A stretch of 64,000 nucleotides of DNA from Candidatus Omnitrophota bacterium (GCA_040753015.1 JBFMHM010000001.1:339157-403156); one strand, 5' to 3'; shown: positions 1 through 64,000, counted from the stretch's first letter. The notes: a model not told the origin generated them from the letters alone. Numbers and translations: made by a program.

Positions 1-2750
1 CAACGAACGCATTTTGTGCCCTGGGCTTTTGTAACAATACACCCAAAAATTTCTGCATTAGTAATCTTGACTGAAGAAACAATAAATATCTCTCTAAGCT
101 GAATCTCGGAATATTTACTTAAAAGAGAATAGTCATTCTGATTAACTTTTAATTCAATGCCTGCCTCTAAAGAACTTCCTATTATACCACTAACTCTTTT
201 TTCTTCAAGTGCTTTTAAAACTTCTTTTCTTATTTCAAAAATTCTATTAACTCTAACGGCAAGCACCTCATCTTCCCATTCTTTTCTTATTTTTGGCCAG
301 CTACTTAAAAAAACACTTTCCCGCTCGTCGAAAGACGAGCGAGGCCTCGCCCCTTCTAAGGGGCGGGCTTCTTCGCTATTTTTACTAAACACCTGCCAAA
401 TTTCCTCGCTTGTAAAACTAAGAATTGGTGAAATTAATTTTATTAATGACTCCAAGACATAAAAAAGAGCGGTCTGCGCACTACGCCTGCCTAGTGAATT
501 AAAACGAAAAGTATACAACCTATCTTTTAAAATATCTAAATAGAAATTTGATAAAGTCTCGCTACAAAACGCATAAATATCGTGATATGCCTTAAAAAAT
601 AAAAAATTATCAAATGAATTCTGAACATCATTTACCAAATTATTTAATTTTAGGAGTATCCACTTATCAATCTCAAATAATTTTTCATATTCAATTTTAT
701 CTTTATTGAAATCAAAATCATAAAGATTGCTAATAGTAAACCTAAATGTATTTCTAATTTTTCGATATCCTTCAACAAGGCGCAATAAAATCTCATCAGA
801 AATTCTAATATCCTCGGAATAATCACTTGACGCTACCCACAATCTTAAAATATCTGCACCATATTTATCAATTACAGCCTGCGGGCTAATTACATTGCCT
901 TGTGACTTTGACATTTTACGCCCTAAGCCGTCAACAACAAAACCATGCGTAAGCACCTCTTTAAAGCTTGGAGTGCCATCAATTGCCATTGCAGGAATAA
1001 TTGACGCCTGAAACCAACCGCGATGTTGGTCAGACCCTTCTAAATAAAGCTCGGCAGGAAATTTTAAATTTTCTCTTTGCTTTAAAACAGCTTGAGAACT
1101 TACTCCCGAATCAAACCAAACATCTAAAATATCTTCGCCCTTATAAATCCCGTCTCTTTTATTGCAACTCGGACAAACAAAATCTTTTGGTAAAAAATCC
1201 TCTATTTTACGAATAAACCAAGCATCACTTCCTTCTTTCAAAATAAACTCTGCATATTTATTTATAATTTGTGTATCTAAAATCTCAGAATCATCACAAT
1301 TTTTGCAATAGATTACCGGAATTGGCACGCCCCAATAACGCTGGCGCGACAAGCACCAATCAGGCCGCGCCTCAATCATACTTGTAATACGGTTTTGGCC
1401 ATAACTTGGCACCCAGTTAACTTGTTTAATTATATGGATAATTTTTGTTCTTAAACTGTTATGATCAATACTCATAAACCACTGTCGCGTTGCACGAAAT
1501 ATTACTGGTTCTTTGCAGCGCCAACAATGCGGATAGGAATGCCTAATTTTATCTTCTAATAGAAGTTCACCTTTATTTCTTAGATGCTCAATAATTTTTT
1601 CGTTTGCTTTATAAACGTGTAGGCCGGTAAATTCTCCTTGGTTTTCATCAAATTTGCCTTTTCCATCAACCGGCATAACTATTGGTAAATTAAATTTAAT
1701 CCCCGCAAAATAATCTTCTTGCCCATGGCCTGGAGCAGTATGCACACACCCGGTGCCTTCTTCTCTGGTGATATAATCAACATTAATTACTCTGCCTACT
1801 GAGTCGCCAGAGAAAACAAAAGGCCTGCGATATTTTAGATTGACTAAATTAGCTCCTTTACCAAATTTAATTGGTTTATCGAAATTTATAATTTTGATAA
1901 TACCTTCAAAAACAACTTTTAACCTCTCCAATAAATCTTCTGCAACAATTAAAATCGAGCCATTATCGTGAATTAACCCAACATATTCAAAATTTGGGTG
2001 AAGAGCAATGGCCGTATTAGCGAGTAATGTCCAAGGTGTTGTTGTCCAAATTAAAAAATACACTTTTTTATTTTTTAAATCATTGTTTATTTCTGCGAGA
2101 TTTAAAATTTCGAATTTTACAAAAATCGATGGAGAAGTTTTATCTTGATACTCTACTTCTGCTTCAGCAAGCGCTGTCTCGCAATTATAACACCAGTTAA
2201 CTGGCTTTAAACCTCGATAAATGTAGCCTCTTTTAGTAAGCTCATCAAAAGATTTTATAATCGCATATTCATAATCGCTAGATAACGTTAGATATGGATT
2301 GTCCCAATCTCCAAATACACCCAAACGTTTAAATTCTTGTTTTTGAATATTAACATACTTTAAGGCATAATCTTTTGCTTTTTTACGAAATTCAATTTTA
2401 TCAATTTGTGATTTGTGAATTTTTAATTCTTTAAAAAGCTGATGCTCAACCGGCAGGCCGTGACAATCCCATCCCGGAATATAGGGAGTATTAAAACCCT
2501 TTAGGGTTTTATATTTTATAATAATATCTTTTAGGGTTTTATTTAAGGCATGCCCGATATGAATGTTTCCGTTTGCGTAAGGCGGGCCGTCATGAAGAAT
2601 ATATTTTTCTGCCTTCTGATTCTTTTCCTGCATCTTTTGGTAAATATTATTTTTCTGCCAAAAATCTAAAAGCTTAGGTTCTTTTTCTTTTAGATTAGCC
2701 TTCATAGAAAATTCTGTTTTAGGAAGATTGAGAGTAGTTTTGTAATCCAT
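1..2750 (-). CDS. ileS: Isoleucyl-tRNA synthetase, partial (C-terminus lies beyond the window start)
   Basis: Minus-strand translation from the ATG at 2750 starts MDYKTTLNLPKTEF. HIGH motif (PYANGNIHIGHALN) and KMSKS motif (KMSKSQGNV) are both present. The reading frame stays open to base 1. This ORF is missing from the ORF track, apparently because no stop codon falls inside the window. Confidence 0.9.
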   Translation of the reverse strand, partial: MDYKTTLNLPKTEFSMKANLKEKEPKLLDFWQKNNIYQKMQEKNQKAEKYILHDGPPYANGNIHIGHALNKTLKDIIIKYKTLKGFNTPYIPGWDCHGLPVEHQLFKELKIHKSQIDKIEFRKKAKDYALKYVNIQKQEFKRLGVFGDWDNPYLTLSSDYEYAIIKSFDELTKRGYIYRGLKPVNWCYNCETALAEAEVEYQDKTSPSIFVKFEILNLAEINNDLKNKKVYFLIWTTTPWTLLANTAIALHPNFEYVGLIHDNGSILIVAEDLLERLKVVFEGIIKIINFDKPIKFGKGANLVNLKYRRPFVFSGDSVGRVINVDYITREEGTGCVHTAPGHGQEDYFAGIKFNLPIVMPVDGKGKFDENQGEFTGLHVYKANEKIIEHLRNKGELLLEDKIRHSYPHCWRCKEPVIFRATRQWFMSIDHNSLRTKIIHIIKQVNWVPSYGQNRITSMIEARPDWCLSRQRYWGVPIPVIYCKNCDDSEILDTQIINKYAEFILKEGSDAWFIRKIEDFLPKDFVCPSCNKRDGIYKGEDILDVWFDSGVSSQAVLKQRENLKFPAELYLEGSDQHRGWFQASIIPAMAIDGTPSFKEVLTHGFVVDGLGRKMSKSQGNVISPQAVIDKYGADILRLWVASSDYSEDIRISDEILLRLVEGYRKIRNTFRFTISNLYDFDFNKDKIEYEKLFEIDKWILLKLNNLVNDVQNSFDNFLFFKAYHDIYAFCSETLSNFYLDILKDRLYTFRFNSLGRRSAQTALFYVLESLIKLISPILSFTSEEIWQVFSKNSEEARPLEGARPRSSFDERESVFLSSWPKIRKEWEDEVLAVRVNRIFEIRKEVLKALEEKRVSGIIGSSLEAGIELKVNQNDYSLLSKYSEIQLREIFIVSSVKITNAEIFGCIVTKAQGTKCVR
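320..368. repeat. GC-rich double-hairpin palindromic element inserted in frame within ileS (RPE/REP-like)
   Basis: Hairpins cgctcgtc-gaaa-gacgagcg and cgcccc-ttctaa-ggggcg. Local GC is >65% against a ~30% background. It encodes an extra ...NSEEARPLEGARPRSSFDERE... segment in the IleS C-terminal region without breaking the frame. Confidence 0.6.
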
Positions 2751-2753
2751 AAG

Positions 2754-3605
2754 TTAAATATACTTTCCGATAATTGGCTTGAGTCTTTTTTTAACTGCAC
2801 TAGTAATAGCGCTTTTTGGAGTGACAATTGCATATTTTAAAGCACTAGAACATAAGCAATTACGCTCCTTAGCAAGCACAGGGACAATATTTGTTATAAT
2901 ATTCTTTGCATTCTCAACATTCTTATTTAGGTTTGAAATAATCATGTCGATTGTGACTGTATCGTGCTTAGGATGCCAACAATCATAATCGGTCACACAA
3001 GCTAAAGTTACATAGCAAATTTCCGCTTCTCTGGCAAGCTTTGCTTCAGCTAAATTAGTCATTGCAATTATATCAAATCCAAGCTTTCTATAAATACTTG
3101 ATTCAGCTTTAGTCGAAAACTGTGGCCCTTCCATATTCACATAAACTCCCCCTAGATGAATTGGAATATCCATTTTTTTAACAATCTCGTAAATTTTTTT
3201 TGCATTATCCTGGCAGATTGGATCAGCAAAACTAACATGGCTAACTATGCCTTTACCAAAAAATGTACTAATTCTTTTCGATGTCCTATCAAAAAATTGG
3301 TCAGGCAAAACTAGGTCTAGCGGCCTTAGCTCTTCTTTCAAGCTACCTACTGCGGATATAGAAATAATCTTCTCTACACCTATTTTCTTCATTGCAAAAA
3401 TATTTGCCCGGTAATTTATTTCACTAGGTAGAATCGTATGATTTATGCCATGACGCGGCAAAAATACAACATCTATTCCGTTAAGCTGGCCACAAATAAA
3501 TTCGCTGGATGGCTTACCAAAAGGAGTAGTAACCTTTATTTTTTTAATCTTACCTAAACCATCTATTTTATAGAGACCGCTTCCACCAATTATTCCAATT
3601 ATCAT
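2754..3605 (-). CDS. mtnP: S-methyl-5'-thioadenosine phosphorylase / purine nucleoside phosphorylase family
   Basis: 283 aa. GIIGGSG N-terminus and PRHG motif typical of the PNP/MTAP family. Confidence 0.7.
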   Translation of the reverse strand: MIIGIIGGSGLYKIDGLGKIKKIKVTTPFGKPSSEFICGQLNGIDVVFLPRHGINHTILPSEINYRANIFAMKKIGVEKIISISAVGSLKEELRPLDLVLPDQFFDRTSKRISTFFGKGIVSHVSFADPICQDNAKKIYEIVKKMDIPIHLGGVYVNMEGPQFSTKAESSIYRKLGFDIIAMTNLAEAKLAREAEICYVTLACVTDYDCWHPKHDTVTIDMIISNLNKNVENAKNIITNIVPVLAKERNCLCSSALKYAIVTPKSAITSAVKKRLKPIIGKYI

Positions 3606-49819: not shown

Positions 49820-49897
49820 TGGGGTGGGTGACGGGATTCGAACCCGCGGCACCTTGAGCCACAGTCAAGCGCTCTACCGGGCTGAGCTACACCCACC
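49820..49897 (-). tRNA. tRNA-His (anticodon GUG) with encoded G-1 and CCA
   Basis: Cloverleaf folds by hand. Acceptor GUGGGUG/CACCCAC. Anticodon loop CUGUGGC. An extra 5' G pairs with discriminator C73. T-loop UUCGAAU. 3' CCA is encoded. Confidence 0.85.
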
Positions 49898-49906
49898 ACA
49901 AGAAAA

Positions 49907-50959
49907 TTAATTAAGAATCTTCTTAGATAATTTATCTTCGATACTTACTTTAATGTTCTCAAGGCCCATTCTCGGCCTATCAAACTTTGTCTTTATCTTA
50001 AAATCTAAAACAATTTTACCGCCAATATTACTGAATACCTCAAATACTGCTCCCATAATCTTTGCAGCATCCGGCGCTTCTTTAGAATTATCTTTTGGTT
50101 CTTCGATTTTGATAAAAGTCATATTTTTTAATTCTAGATGTGATTTTATTAATAAATCGTTATTACTAGAATTTAAATCTGTCAAAAAATCTAAAGATGC
50201 CTTCTCAACCTTTAAATCGGCCAAATTCACATAATTATTGTAATAAGGCGATAGGTACATGCCGTCTATATCTCTTAAATTAATGTTCCCTTCCATATCT
50301 CTCTTACCAAAATTTACCCACCCTTGGCCGTCAATACGGCCAGCCGCGTGTTCATTTTCCCAGGGAATATTACCTTTTATTTGATATATAGTCCTCATAT
50401 GCCTCGGCGGATAGGCATAGTTTTTTAAGATAAAATTCAATGAATCAAATTTTATTTTGAGGCCGCTTTCACTAATAACTTTATCAATAACTTCAAATTT
50501 TCCATCAATAATTTTTAAATTTTTAATAACTAAAGGAATGTTTATCCTAAAACGAAAATTTTTTGCTTCTTGCGCAGAAACTTCTTTATTATCTACGCTA
50601 TCTGCAGCTAAAGCGATAACTAGCTCCTGCTTCTGCCGAGTAAAAATAATATACGGCTTATTTACAATAATATTATTTAAGACTATTTTTGCGCCTAGAA
50701 ATCCCGGTAAGCTTGGCGATATATAAATATAATCAATATTACCTAAATCTTTAATCTTGATACCGCTTACTTTAATATTAAGCGGAACACTTATCCTAAA
50801 ATTACTTATCTCTACATCTTTTTTAAAAATATTTTCTAGGCTGTTTTCTATTATAGATTCGCCTTTGATAGCGATGAATATATAAATACTACTTACAAAA
50901 AAAACAATACAAACAATCAAAATAAAAATTGCTCTTAATGTTATTTTTATCCGTCTCAT
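49907..50959 (-). CDS. Membrane-anchored hypothetical protein (possibly AsmA/DUF748-like)
   Basis: 350 aa. N-terminal TM and a beta-rich, repeat-like body. No catalytic motif. Confidence 0.3.
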   Translation of the reverse strand: MRRIKITLRAIFILIVCIVFFVSSIYIFIAIKGESIIENSLENIFKKDVEISNFRISVPLNIKVSGIKIKDLGNIDYIYISPSLPGFLGAKIVLNNIIVNKPYIIFTRQKQELVIALAADSVDNKEVSAQEAKNFRFRINIPLVIKNLKIIDGKFEVIDKVISESGLKIKFDSLNFILKNYAYPPRHMRTIYQIKGNIPWENEHAAGRIDGQGWVNFGKRDMEGNINLRDIDGMYLSPYYNNYVNLADLKVEKASLDFLTDLNSSNNDLLIKSHLELKNMTFIKIEEPKDNSKEAPDAAKIMGAVFEVFSNIGGKIVLDFKIKTKFDRPRMGLENIKVSIEDKLSKKILN

Positions 50960-50976
50960 ATTTAAATATAATTTAA

Positions 50977-51050
50977 CGTCCCCGGCCTGATTCGAACAGG
51001 CGACCCTCGGCTTAGAAGGCAGATGCTCTATCCAGCTGAGCTACGGGGAC
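50977..51050 (-). tRNA. tRNA-Arg (anticodon UCU)
   Basis: Acceptor GUCCCCG/CGGGGAC. Anticodon loop CUUCUAA. T-loop UUCGAAU. One U-C mismatch in the anticodon stem. Confidence 0.75.
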
Positions 51051-51082
51051 AGTTTTTTTAACTACCAAAACAAAAAATTAAA

Positions 51083-51157
51083 TCGGGGCGACAGGACTTG
51101 AACCTGTAACCTTCTGCTCCCAAAGCAGACGCTCTAGCCAAGTTGAGCCACGCCCCG
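51083..51157 (-). tRNA. tRNA-Pro (anticodon UGG)
   Basis: Acceptor CGGGGCG/CGCCCCG. Anticodon loop UUUGGGA. T-loop UUCAAGU. Confidence 0.85.
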
Positions 51158-61264: not shown

Positions 61265-61655
61265 TATAAACCGCGCAACTCGTATCCGTCTCCCAAACTC
61301 TTATTTCTTGCAATTTACACCCAGATAATTCTTTCTTTAAATTATCGTAAATATATTTTGCAATATTTTCTGAGCTGGGATTATTTTTTGTCCCGCCACT
61401 TTGTGGCGAGGTCTCGCATTTGGCGGAAAAATATTCAATATCATTCAAATACTTGTGATCGAGCATATCTAAAACTTTATTTAGTTTTTCTTTTAGAATT
61501 TTAAAATCAATAACTAATCCAATATTATTTGTCTCCTGCGCACAAACTACTGCTTCGATATTCCAATTGTGGCCATGTAATTCTTCACATTTACCATGAT
61601 ATTCACGTAATTTATGAGCAGAACTAAATTTTGATTTAACAATAAGCTTATACAT
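61230..61655 (-). CDS. queD: 6-carboxy-5,6,7,8-tetrahydropterin synthase
   Basis: 141 aa. CEELHGHNW zinc-binding motif. Contains an in-frame GC-rich insert (..AKCETSPQSGGTK..) and a GC-rich C-terminal extension. Confidence 0.85.
   Translation of the reverse strand: MYKLIVKSKFSSAHKLREYHGKCEELHGHNWNIEAVVCAQETNNIGLVIDFKILKEKLNKVLDMLDHKYLNDIEYFSAKCETSPQSGGTKNNPSSENIAKYIYDNLKKELSGCKLQEIRVWETDTSCAVYSESRPAGEADE
61391..61427. repeat. GC-rich nested-hairpin element inserted in frame within queD (RPE/REP-like)
   Basis: cgccac-ttt-gtggcg and gcgag-gt-ctcgc, flanked by tcccgcc / ggcgga. Confidence 0.55.
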
Positions 61656-62452
61656 TATATCGAAATTTTTTGGACCTCGCCCATATTACACCCTAAAAAT
61701 TGCCTTGCTTTTATTTTAAAGCCTTCTGGCTCATCGCTTACATAAAATTTTTGCCTAGAAGATACCTTTGATGTGTTTTTAATATTCATATGGTAAAGTA
61801 GATTCTTTACTTCAGAAGCAACTACTTTTGCCGAATCAACCAAGACAATACTTTTCCCCAATACTTGGCTAATTGGCATTTTCAATAAAGGATAATGCGT
61901 ACAACCTAAAACTACAGTATCGACATTATTTCTCTTAAATTCATCAAGATATGATTTTGCAATATCAACTGTAAACTGTGACTTTGTATGCCCATTTTCA
62001 ACCAATGGTACAAACAATGGGCAAGCCTTTACAAATACTTTTGCATTTTTGCTTAACTCGCTAATTTTCTCCTGATAACTTTTACTTTTTACAGTTGCCT
62101 CGGTGCCAATAATACCAATTCTATTATTCCGCGTTACCCTAACTGCTTCTTTTGCGCCTGGCTCAATTACGCCAATTAAGGGAATGCCGAAATATCCTTT
62201 AATTTTAGGAAGCGCAATACTTGATGATGTATTACAGGCAATTACAATTAGCTTAACATTTTGATTTAATAAAAAAAGTATATTATCGAGGGTAAATCGA
62301 ATAATTGTTTCTTTTGACTTTGAGCCATAAGGCAGGCGCGCCGTATCGCCAAAATAAACAATATCTTCATATGGCAGCTCATTAATCAGTTCTTTTACAA
62401 CTGTAAGCCCCCCTAACCCAGAATCAAAAACCCCAATTGGACGATTATTCAT
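61655..62452 (-). CDS. murI: Glutamate racemase
   Basis: GVFDSGLGGLTV motif. The ORF track extends it to a GTG at 62479. The ATG at 62452 (MNNRPIGVFDSG) is the more likely start, because the upstream 27 nt belong to the tmRNA 3' exon. Confidence 0.85.
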   Translation of the reverse strand: MNNRPIGVFDSGLGGLTVVKELINELPYEDIVYFGDTARLPYGSKSKETIIRFTLDNILFLLNQNVKLIVIACNTSSSIALPKIKGYFGIPLIGVIEPGAKEAVRVTRNNRIGIIGTEATVKSKSYQEKISELSKNAKVFVKACPLFVPLVENGHTKSQFTVDIAKSYLDEFKRNNVDTVVLGCTHYPLLKMPISQVLGKSIVLVDSAKVVASEVKNLLYHMNIKNTSKVSSRQKFYVSDEPEGFKIKARQFLGCNMGEVQKISI

Positions 62453-62476
62453 ATATTTATAGTGGAGGTGGCGGGA

Positions 62477-63118
62477 CACTTATCTACTTGTCATCCAAGT
62501 AGCGTGGACTATATCTTCACCCCGACGTTTTGTCGGGGGCCCGGCGTATTATAAGAGGCGTAAATTACCGCTGATTCAATTTTCTAATTTTAGCCACAAG
62601 TCTCATCTTTTTATTCAACAGAGCTTTTGTATATTTTCCAGCTCTATTAGTAACAGATTTATATTTTTCTGTTATAAGATCAGCCTGCGGTTTTTTAATA
62701 ATTAGATATCGTTTTATCTCGTTGAGAAAATCTATTGCCCTATTTTGGCAAACATACCACGCATAAGAATTATTGTGATGAGACATTCTTTTCTTCTTAG
62801 AAATAACCACTCCACCTATTTTTATTTTAATCCATTTCAGAAGCTTCAAATTATTGTTAGCTACTGAAACATATGGCGTATGTGTTTCATTTCTGTGATG
62901 TCGCATTAAAGTAACTGTACCTTCGCCATCAACAATTCCTGCCAAATATGCTTTCTCAACTTCTTTCAGCGGTTTACCTCCTATCTCCTGTTTTACAGGA
63001 AGTCTCTGCAGGGCTTTCACCCCTCAGGATTACCCATTCTTAAATAATTTAAGAATTAGGGCTTCCCTGATATAAGCCAGGTTTAGCATTTCGGATTACT
63101 CCGAAAGTCAACCTTTTG
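62477..63118 (-). other. Group I intron (~642 nt) encoding a LAGLIDADG homing endonuclease
   Basis: P1: exon UCAAU pairs with internal guide GUUGA, with U-G at the 5' splice site and a 6-nt loop. P2-like UUUCGGA-GUAA-UCCGAAA with a GNRA loop. Near the 3' end, a CCCCGAC/GUCGGGG hairpin and a CUACUUG-GAUGA-CAAGUAG (P9-like) hairpin are followed by AUAAGUG, with terminal G immediately before the 3' exon. Confidence 0.6.
62565..63020 (-). CDS. LAGLIDADG-family homing endonuclease (intron-encoded)
   Basis: 151 aa, GTG start. The YLAGIVDGEGTV motif is a single LAGLIDADG motif, so probably a homodimeric type. Confidence 0.8.
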   Translation of the reverse strand: MKALQRLPVKQEIGGKPLKEVEKAYLAGIVDGEGTVTLMRHHRNETHTPYVSVANNNLKLLKWIKIKIGGVVISKKKRMSHHNNSYAWYVCQNRAIDFLNEIKRYLIIKKPQADLITEKYKSVTNRAGKYTKALLNKKMRLVAKIRKLNQR

Positions 63119-63328
63119 ATTGAACCCGCGTCCCTAACTCAGTGCATAAAAGCGAACTACATGCGTAGGCTTACCTTTTAAATCTTGCTATTTTTACTCC
63201 GGAAGCCGGGATTAAAAATAGCCAGTCTTTTAAAACTTAGCCCGATAGCAAAGACAAACTTTTCAGGCGCAGCCTAATAAATGCCTAACGCGCCCCTTAG
63301 GCAAAAACGCATTAGGGCTTACCTCTGA

Positions 63329-63436
63329 TTAGAGAGGTAAGACTTGAGGCGCCATAGGAAGCGCACGAGGTGCTACCCCAACAAAAACTGGAGCAACAAT
63401 CTCATTTGCTGTCCTTAAAAGAGTTTCCTCTTCTGC
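63329..63436 (-). other. Candidate tmRNA tag reading frame (resume codon GCA at 63436, UAA at 63331..63329)
   Basis: The frame set by alignment to the E. coli resume context gives AEEETLLRTANEIVAPVFVGVAPRALPMAPQVLPL*. The stop lies in the loop of hairpin CUUACCUCU-CUAAUC-AGAGGUAAG. Tag length and C-terminus are atypical, so the frame is uncertain. Confidence 0.3.
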
Positions 63437-63538
63437 GTCTATGTGTGTGAGCCTGTTTAACGAGGCCTGACTCACCACCTCGGCACGCCCCTCTTATACA
63501 ACAAAGTTAAGTCGAGCCCTTTCACCCCCTAATTAATA

Positions 63539-63568
63539 AGTATAACACAAAAGTTAACGGTTTTTCAA
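63539..63568 (-). promoter_or_regulatory. Putative sigma70 promoter of ssrA overlapping the smpB 3' end
   Basis: Minus-strand TTGAAA, 18-nt spacer, TATACT, 9 nt upstream of the tmRNA 5' G. Confidence 0.4.
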
Positions 63569-64000
63569 GATGCGCTTAACTTTAAGGTTAAATTCTCTTT
63601 TTTTAATATCTTCCCGTTTGTCAAAAAACTTCTTTCCGCGGCCAAGTGCTAGCTCAATTTTGGCGAAACCCTTTTTGTTAAAATAAAGCTTTAAAGGGAT
63701 AAGCGTAAGGCCTTTTTCTTTAGTCTTTGATGCAAACTTATTAATTTGCCCTTTTTTAAGTAGTAATTTCCTTACTCTCAAAGGATCTACATTTTGATAA
63801 CTTGCTGCTAAATAAGGATTAATATGCATATTATAAAGAAAAACTTCTTCGTTCTCAATCTTTGCAAAACTATCATCAAGTGATGCCTTCGCCTCTCTTA
63901 AAGACTTTACCTCTGAACCTTTTAGTTCAATACCACATTCTAAAGTTTCTAATATAGCGTAATCACGAAATGCCTTACGGTTATTTATAATTATTTGTTT
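63554..64000 (-). CDS. smpB: SsrA-binding protein SmpB (N-terminus at or beyond the window end)
   Basis: The ORF track gives only the C-terminal 91 aa (GLTLIPLKLYFNKKGFAKIELALGRGKKFFDKRE). The same frame stays open upstream to the window edge, with typical SmpB sequence (..NRKAFRDYAILETLECGIELKGSEVKSLREAKASLDDSFAKIENEEVFLYNMHINPY..). Confidence 0.85.
   Translation of the reverse strand, partial: KQIIINNRKAFRDYAILETLECGIELKGSEVKSLREAKASLDDSFAKIENEEVFLYNMHINPYLAASYQNVDPLRVRKLLLKKGQINKFASKTKEKGLTLIPLKLYFNKKGFAKIELALGRGKKFFDKREDIKKREFNLKVKRILKNR

Follow-up and report, generated by a model that had tools for sequence, protein, structure and literature searches.

How can a functional transfer-messenger RNA (tmRNA) be made from a gene whose T-loop is broken by 642 nt of inserted DNA, on the far side of which stand the 3′ strands of both T-stem and acceptor stem? 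A Candidatus Omnitrophota bacterium raises the question with its tmRNA gene, ssrA, found on the minus strand of the 64,000-nt stretch of DNA analysed here (referred to as the window; all coordinates are positions in it), in a locus where smpB, the tmRNA gene and a racemase gene share that strand. The answer that we hold to be very probable is that this is a functional Omnitrophota ssrA gene in the known ‘intron form’, carrying a group I intron that removes itself from the transcript and has an I-CreI-like LAGLIDADG endonuclease aboard. Ribosome rescue in the organism would then depend on the self-splicing of a ribozyme, a dependence that is already accepted for intron-form tmRNAs.

The split tmRNA gene and its predicted joined product

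The body of the unspliced gene is matched by the Rfam tmRNA model (RF00023) between 63522 and 63117 on the minus strand, with 113.5 bits (E=1.4e-43) against a gathering score of 47. The alignment covers pseudoknot 1 (PK1), the resume context AUAGAC followed by GCA, helix 5 and PK2-PK4, and it stops in the T-loop, at GGGACGCGGGUUCAAU; all of the model positions past GGGUUCAAU (15/15), which represent the 3′ halves of acceptor and T-stem, are deleted. The 5′ end of the tmRNA is at 63529 (GGGGGUGAAAGGGCUCGAC), and exon 1 (63119..63529, minus strand) comprises the acceptor 5′ strand GGGGGUG, PK1, the tag open reading frame (ORF), helix 5, PK2-PK4, the T-stem strand GCGGG and nucleotides 1-6 of the T-loop (UUCAAU). 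The strands that are missing from this body are found beyond the 642-nt insert in exon 2 (62463..62476, minus strand), UCCCGCCACCUCCA, which consists of T-loop nucleotide 7 (U), the T-stem strand CCCGC, the acceptor strand CACCUCC and the discriminator A. The CCCGC of exon 2 pairs with the GCGGG of exon 1 at five of five positions, and CACCUCC pairs with GGGGGUG at seven of seven, including the G3-U70 pair. A tRNA-Ala-like domain, with its 7-bp acceptor, G3-U70, discriminator A and 7-nt T-loop, is complete only once 63119 has been joined to 62476, whereupon the T-loop reads UUCAAUU. The joined 3′ end, GGACGCGGGUUCAAUUCCCGCCACCUCCA, is identical to the Rfam consensus at 28 of 29 positions (read from the alignment), and the spliced RNA is 425 nt long, or 428 nt with CCA added; the CCA is not encoded, the acceptor strand being followed by ACUA. 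These findings bear out the sequence-only reading of this DNA, which had described tmRNA blocks that break off in the T-loop, had located the missing T-stem and acceptor strands about 640 nt further downstream, and had proposed the RF00023 search that gave the above-threshold match. Indeed, the sequence features which it listed are all present where it had placed them.

The tag reading frame (63329..63436, minus strand) runs from the resume codon GCA (63436..63434) to a UAA stop codon (63331..63329) in the loop of helix 5, and encodes a 35-amino-acid tag, AEEETLLRTANEIVAPVFVGVAPRALPMAPQVLPL, behind a canonical resume context. The frame had previously been regarded as doubtful. That doubt is not sustained, given the resume context, the position of the stop codon and the tags of 26-32 amino acids that ARAGORN reports in spliced Omnitrophota-type relatives; with 35 amino acids in line with these, the long tag is a trait of the clade. 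ARAGORN itself found no tmRNA in the window, in an unspliced construct or in the in silico spliced one on which the sequence-only reading had suggested running it, and still called none when the score threshold was lowered or when the A of the T-loop was ‘repaired’ to G. The program did call the window tmRNA after the in silico deletion of at least two tag codons, with the resume codon and stop codon left unchanged, and it called a tmRNA in 17 of the 20 in silico spliced relatives. The miss can therefore be assigned to a limit on tag length in the program, and the negative result was rejected as an argument against a tmRNA: the suggested check fails on the spliced sequence as it stands and succeeds once the tag is two codons shorter. 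Standard annotation has been left incomplete at this locus, with ARAGORN blank, the Rfam tmRNA truncated at its 3′ end and the endonuclease deposited as a hypothetical protein, and the exon, intron and tag coordinates given here amount to a correction to the annotation of an essential RNA.

Structure and covariation of the intron

The 642-nt insert (62477..63118, minus strand) lies between nucleotides 6 and 7 of the T-loop (‘position 7’), is preceded by a U at position -1 (63119) and has a G as its last nucleotide (62477). The helices of a group I intron can be laid out along its minus strand as follows: the internal guide sequence (IGS) of P1, GUUGA, at 63112..63108; P2, with a GUAA loop, at 63106..63089; P3, formed by 63081..63076 with 62545..62540; P4-P6 at 63070..63010; P7, formed by 63006..63001 with 62510..62506; P7.1 at 63000..62986; P7.2, formed by 62982..62967 with 62573..62553; P8 at 62538..62520; and P9 at 62502..62484, ahead of the terminal G. 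The U-G pair of a P1 formed with GUUGA, the GNRA-capped P2, the P9 hairpin and the terminal G had all been recognised beforehand, and all of them are present. The position of P7.1 and P7.2 between P7 and P3′ marks the intron as IA-type; the subgroup is presumably ‘IA3’.

It had also been suggested that the Rfam group I model (Intron_gpI, RF00028) be used as a check, and this was answered in part, by two partial matches, both below the gathering score of 50: a piece over P8, J8-7, P7′ and P9 (24.7 bits, E=8e-4) and a piece over P4-P6 (21.3 bits, E=9e-3). The low score can be attributed to the large ORF insert and to the non-bacterial seed of the model (bioRxiv 10.1101/2020.01.27.920355). With the model below its threshold, comparative covariation was used instead, for which a hand-derived structure of 73 pairs was mapped on to an alignment of 21 sequences (the window and 20 further loci). 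It was found that 93.4% of the cells are paired, as against 36-56% when the partners are slid, and that 37 of the 73 pairs show two-sided changes, values which were reached by none of 500 shuffles. Both sides have changed in every pair of P2 (7/7), P8 (7/7) and P7.1 (5/5) and in three of the six pairs of P3, whilst P6 and P7 are invariant; the U-G pair at position -1 and the terminal G each occur in 21 of 21 sequences. The two halves of the T-stem that flank the intron are 100% paired, with compensatory changes in three of the five pairs, and the window itself supplies a compensatory exon-intron pair, in that its T-loop reads UUCAAU where the relatives have UUCGAU and its IGS reads GUUGA where they have GUCGA. 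For P9 the alignment columns are in register in the window and the sequences nearest to it and out of register elsewhere (59% paired), so that the support for P9 comes from the window sequence and the Rfam piece and not from the pair count. At the level of sequence comparison, these results confirm that the group I structure of the insert is not a chance resemblance.

A route from this gene to a working tmRNA can be proposed. The ssrA gene would be transcribed together with smpB or just after it, and, as 642 nt separate exon 1 from the 3′ strands of T-stem and acceptor, no tRNA-like domain could fold in the primary transcript. The IA-type ribozyme, with its P7.1/P7.2 extension, would then remove itself: the last nucleotide of exon 1 (U, 63119) would form a U-G wobble with the internal guide GUUGA, an exogenous G would attack the 5′ splice site, the terminal G (62477) would dock and the exons would be ligated. 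With ligation the T-stem, its UUCAAUU loop and an acceptor stem with G3-U70 would be whole again, and after 3′ trimming and addition of CCA the 425-nt RNA would be charged with alanine, would work with SmpB and would tag stalled proteins with the 35-residue peptide.

Several points weigh against this reading of the gene as a functional one. The Intron_gpI model gave no match at its gathering score; splicing itself is predicted from the DNA; and the 64 kb seen belong to a 417-kb contig, elsewhere on which, or beyond which, a second, uninterrupted ssrA is possible. With the rest of the genome unseen, and with ARAGORN silent in the window, the locus could also be a dead ssrA, that is, a pseudogene disrupted by an insertion that has been retained, with ribosome rescue provided by another copy or by alternative factors. 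This is, in our estimation, highly improbable. The tmRNA helices all score well (113.5 bits), the adjoining smpB is intact and the length of the tag accounts for the ARAGORN result; moreover, the covariation of the T-stem halves in 21 lineages and the exon-IGS pair of the window are not what a pseudogene would keep. As the window comes from a metagenome-assembled genome (MAG), an assembly or binning artefact in the form of a chimeric join within the contig might be suspected. The chance of this is close to negligible, since 20 genomes that were assembled independently, in different studies, show the same architecture and boundaries, and the contig spans 417 kb.

The endonuclease and the state of its gene

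The LAGLIDADG ORF is found in the loop of P7.2 (62565..62969, minus strand), where the start position aligned with that of the family is CTG (62969..62967) and the stop codon is UAA (62567..62565). Its product is 100% identical to AB1755_02170 of NCBI, a hypothetical protein of a Candidatus Omnitrophota MAG, and the 151-amino-acid protein annotated there corresponds to the frame from a GTG at 63020. More than 229 homologues of the endonuclease were found. The window protein scores 21.3-21.8 bits against Pfam LAGLIDADG_3, just under the cut-off of 22.5, whilst 23 of 26 close homologues are matched by the same profile (best E=8e-9); the LAGLIDADG profile search proposed by the sequence-only reading thus gives a borderline score for the window protein and matches for most of its close family. 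Over its full length, the profile of the family can be aligned with I-MsoI (E=9e-6). An AlphaFold (AF2) model of the endonuclease, with a predicted local distance difference test (pLDDT) score of 91.3, has I-MsoI, I-CreI and I-CvuI as its top Foldseek matches, with template modelling (TM) scores of 0.72-0.77 and identities of 20-24%, and its fold is alpha-beta-beta-alpha-beta-beta-alpha, with the LAGLIDADG helix at the N-terminus and the catalytic acidic residue present. The LAGIVDGEG motif, including the catalytic Asp, is invariant in the family, and the window ORF keeps every family-invariant residue. Family profile and modelled fold thus agree with the earlier claim that the insert carries a LAGLIDADG ORF, and they point to a single-motif LAGLIDADG enzyme of the I-CreI/I-MsoI fold, which should act as a homodimer.

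Comparison of the window with its relatives gave proportions of 0.14-0.23 for non-synonymous differences (pN) and 0.66-0.81 for synonymous differences (pS); pN is far below pS, and the endonuclease is therefore under purifying selection, although dS is saturated and values of dN/dS are rough. Selection of this strength over a deep divergence, together with the retention of the ORF in nearly all of the 21 in-intron lineages, would also suit a protein kept mainly as a maturase that aids folding of the tmRNA intron and not as a DNA endonuclease. Some LAGLIDADG proteins are indeed maturases, and the matches in the Protein Data Bank (PDB) include I-AniI and an ‘mRNA maturase’. We nevertheless think a maturase unlikely. 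Clostridia and Proteobacteria have homologous introns at this site that share the core and lack an ORF, from which it follows that the ribozyme can do without a protein encoded in the intron; the motif has kept its catalytic Asp throughout the family; and known LAGLIDADG maturases are mostly double-motif enzymes. As a homing endonuclease, the homodimeric enzyme would cut the T-arm DNA of intron-less tmRNA genes, and the intron would spread by homing. The candidate target is the pseudo-palindromic (inverted-repeat) T-arm DNA GGACGCGGGTTC(G/A)ATTCCCGCCACC; the activity of the enzyme and this target, like the present expression of the window copy, are predictions.

Expression is the part of the reading against which the endonuclease gene itself speaks. 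The start codon of the relatives is TTG, ATG or a GTG located 9 nt upstream, in each case 7-8 nt after GGAGG and within the 5′ strand of P7.2. At these positions the window has GTA for GTG and CTG for TTG, so that neither of the relatives' starts is present, and the sole canonical in-frame start in the window is the GTG at 63020 (63018-63020), inside P6. Both the Shine-Dalgarno sequence, GGAGG, and the start position (within 62964-62985) are buried in P7.2, in its 5′ strand. The change from TTG to CTG is paired with a synonymous change from CAA to CAG in the last codons of the ORF, and the P7.2 helix is intact. With the start codons of the relatives lost, the endonuclease may be weakly expressed or silent in the window organism. 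A serious possibility, even if clearly short of an even chance, is that the intron still splices and is no longer mobile, its endonuclease gene having started to decay, untranslated or weakly translated from the CTG or the upstream GTG. In its favour are the GTA and CTG found where relatives have start codons, the matched TTG to CTG and CAA to CAG changes, by which the helix in the RNA was kept at the expense of the start codon, and the centre of the window's own homing site, which reads TTCAATT in place of TTCGATT. It is opposed by an ORF that is otherwise intact, with its family-invariant residues and LAGIVDGEG motif kept, and by the 151-amino-acid frame that the GTG at 63020 opens; initiation at CTG is, in addition, possible at a low level in bacteria.

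Neighbouring genes, relatives and known systems

The smpB gene lies directly upstream of the tmRNA (63554..64000, minus strand, its 5′ end beyond the window) and matches Pfam SmpB over profile positions 1-143 of 143 (E=5.9e-55), in keeping with the earlier statement that ssrA adjoins smpB. A promoter-like sequence, TTGAAA-18-TGnTATACT (63539..63568, minus strand), has 10 of 12 consensus matches plus an extended -10 TG and stops 10 nt short of the tmRNA 5′ end; the position is apt, and the number of such sites that the consensus scan found in the region is not above chance. On the other side, the ATG of a murI-like glutamate racemase gene (61655..62452, minus strand; Pfam Asp_Glu_race, E=6.6e-21) follows 10 nt after the tmRNA discriminator, and a terminator scan found no terminator between the two. 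With the racemase gene so close, no terminator between and CCA not encoded, the tmRNA 3′ end would have to be cut from a longer transcript and CCA then added. Of the 46 ORFs in the window that reach 200 amino acids, 45 are on the minus strand, as are three tRNA genes, for His, Arg and Pro, at 49820-51157, with a 350-amino-acid ORF between tRNA-His and tRNA-Arg.

A scan with one genome per species found the endonuclease family in 326 species-representative genomes. In 20 of the best loci the ORF is flanked, as in the window, by a tmRNA body on one side and by an exon 2 that fits it on the other, and lies in the sense orientation in introns of 629-663 nt, the genomes being those of Omnitrophota, WOR-1 and MAGs labelled as Planctomycetes, Deltaproteobacteria or Pseudomonadota; the occurrence of the same intron and ORF in differing tmRNA bodies and tags across these groups fits horizontal spread. 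The intron core can also be aligned with that of tmRNA introns from Clostridia and Proteobacteria, which are short and carry no ORF, with P1-P9 in common and with the shared stretches AUAAUACGC before P3′ and GAAGAKAUAGUC of J8/7-P7′, and these introns are therefore of the same lineage. A case in Clostridium botulinum is said to be the founder of intron-form tmRNA genes. The 2025 tmRNA database holds 883 unique intron-form tmRNAs from 21 phyla, all split in the T-loop and mostly at ‘position 7’, with 18 Omnitrophota genomes included and LAGLIDADG genes in 36 of the tmRNAs; in the founding set of 23 LAGLIDADG genes, 19 are in the P7.1 region and four after P9 (PMC11915505). The sequence-only reading's view of intron-containing ssrA genes as very rare, and with it the picture of a near-unique case, has been overtaken by these figures and by the 326 genomes with the endonuclease family, and the window gene is a further example of an already described gene form.

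The genomic context of the endonuclease relatives was surveyed at 80 loci, with a tmRNA looked for within 2.5 kb. The suppositions that all relatives lie inside tmRNA introns, or that all adjoin a tmRNA, were both rejected: free-standing copies were found, and about 17 of the 80 loci are without a tmRNA within that distance. In about 30 genomes of Clostridium/Tissierella type (among loci L025-L080), the endonuclease is free-standing on the opposite strand, beside a tmRNA with an ORF-less intron of 250-420 nt. These copies are intact (132-164 amino acids) and convergent with the tmRNA, from whose discriminator their stop codons are separated by 32-60 bp (up to 99 bp), as in L034, with the endonuclease at 2492-2911 (plus strand) and the tmRNA at 2943-3578 (minus strand), and also in L073 and L061. 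In three proteobacterial MAGs the endonuclease is found 60-100 bp downstream, on the same strand, of a tmRNA with an ORF-less intron. Two Anaerolineae/Thermoflexales MAGs (L047 and L063) have the endonuclease inside the tmRNA intron and antisense to it (tmRNA on the minus strand at about 2379-3432, endonuclease on the plus strand at 2501-2899), and their intron follows T-loop nucleotide 1 (‘position 2’) rather than lying at position 7, so that one endonuclease family is tied to two intron subsites.

In two further MAGs the tmRNA appears to be uninterrupted. An Omnitrophica MAG (L007, 1988-3010) has a tmRNA with a 6-nt T-loop (TTCGAT), followed 100 nt later by the 3′ half of an intron, with P7.2, the endonuclease, P3′, P8, P7′, P9 and terminal G, and then by a decayed exon 2, TTCTGCCACCA. 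This looks like the loss or replacement of an intron, with the endonuclease left free-standing beside a site that is possibly resistant; misassembly is a possible explanation of the same arrangement. An Elusimicrobia MAG (L019, 1544-2423) has an intron-less tmRNA with an unusual T-loop (TGCAAAT) and then a terminator hairpin, after which comes a free-standing endonuclease with its own ATG and a terminator downstream. In a neighbour-joining tree the in-intron clade stands apart from the clostridial free-standing clade, and the endonucleases of these two MAGs are nested in the former. Elsewhere among the loci, L044 (2937-5310), which belongs to those without a tmRNA within 2.5 kb, differs from its close relative L040 in that about 2.4 kb has been inserted between the tmRNA 3′ end and the free-standing endonuclease gene; several more clostridial loci likewise lack a tmRNA in that range. 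A second copy of the tmRNA 3′ end, GACCTCGCACCTCCACCA, is found at 3145-3157 of L008, about 150 nt beyond exon 2 proper. The integration of islands at tmRNA genes typically leaves such 3′-end repeats.

The clostridial layout recalls collaborative homing, in which a free-standing endonuclease adjoins an ORF-less intron whose insertion site is the target of the enzyme; phage cases have been described (PMC3984707), amongst them T4 mobE/I-TevIII (PMC2790892). The likeness extends to the clostridial relatives, with their free-standing endonuclease about 35 bp beyond a tmRNA with an ORF-less intron, and not to the window, where the endonuclease lies inside the intron as in a classical mobile intron. 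The clostridial layout also differs in being chromosomal and not phage-borne, and its function is putative. If the free-standing enzymes cut the intron-less T-arm, most ‘endonuclease-less’ tmRNA introns would be mobilised in trans. We put forward tentatively, as slightly short of an evenly balanced proposition, that the endonuclease family accompanies tmRNA at every stage of a proposed pathway from free-standing gene to mobile intron and that most endonuclease-less tmRNA introns are mobilised in this way, in which case the 4% endonuclease-bearing figure of the literature would understate the mobility of tmRNA introns. A literature search of incomplete coverage found no paper that describes a free-standing endonuclease or collaborative homing for tmRNA, and the clostridial layout may be new. 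The family, with its 326 species-level genomes, is in any event far more widely distributed, and also better conserved, than the number of intron-borne copies in the literature would suggest, and often sits just outside the gene; these layouts offer a natural chromosomal system in which the assembly of mobile group I introns can be studied.

Of the known systems, the published intron-form tmRNAs are the closest to the window gene, with which they share the host gene, insertion after T-loop nucleotide 6, the U at position -1, the terminal G, the intron core and the site of the endonuclease, which is the P7.1 region in 19 of 23 published cases and the P7.2 loop in the window (PMC11915505). Nothing categorical separates them; particular to the window are the A at T-loop position 4 with its matching IGS change, the 35-amino-acid tag, the unencoded CCA and a family start position without a canonical start codon. 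I-CreI, I-MsoI and I-CvuI are single-motif homodimeric enzymes of group I introns in the 23S rRNA genes of green-algal chloroplasts, and the window enzyme resembles them in its fold, its one motif, its length (about 135-150 amino acids), its location within a group I intron that interrupts a structural RNA gene and, as an expectation only, its pseudo-palindromic target. It differs from them in sequence (20-24% identity) and in having tmRNA rather than rRNA as its host gene, and its cleavage activity and target are predicted. The anticodon-loop introns, lastly, likewise self-splice from a loop of a tRNA-like domain, with pairing between exon and guide setting the 5′ splice site; these are mostly ORF-less, whereas the window intron, with its P7.1 and P7.2, occupies the T-loop of an RNA that has no anticodon loop.

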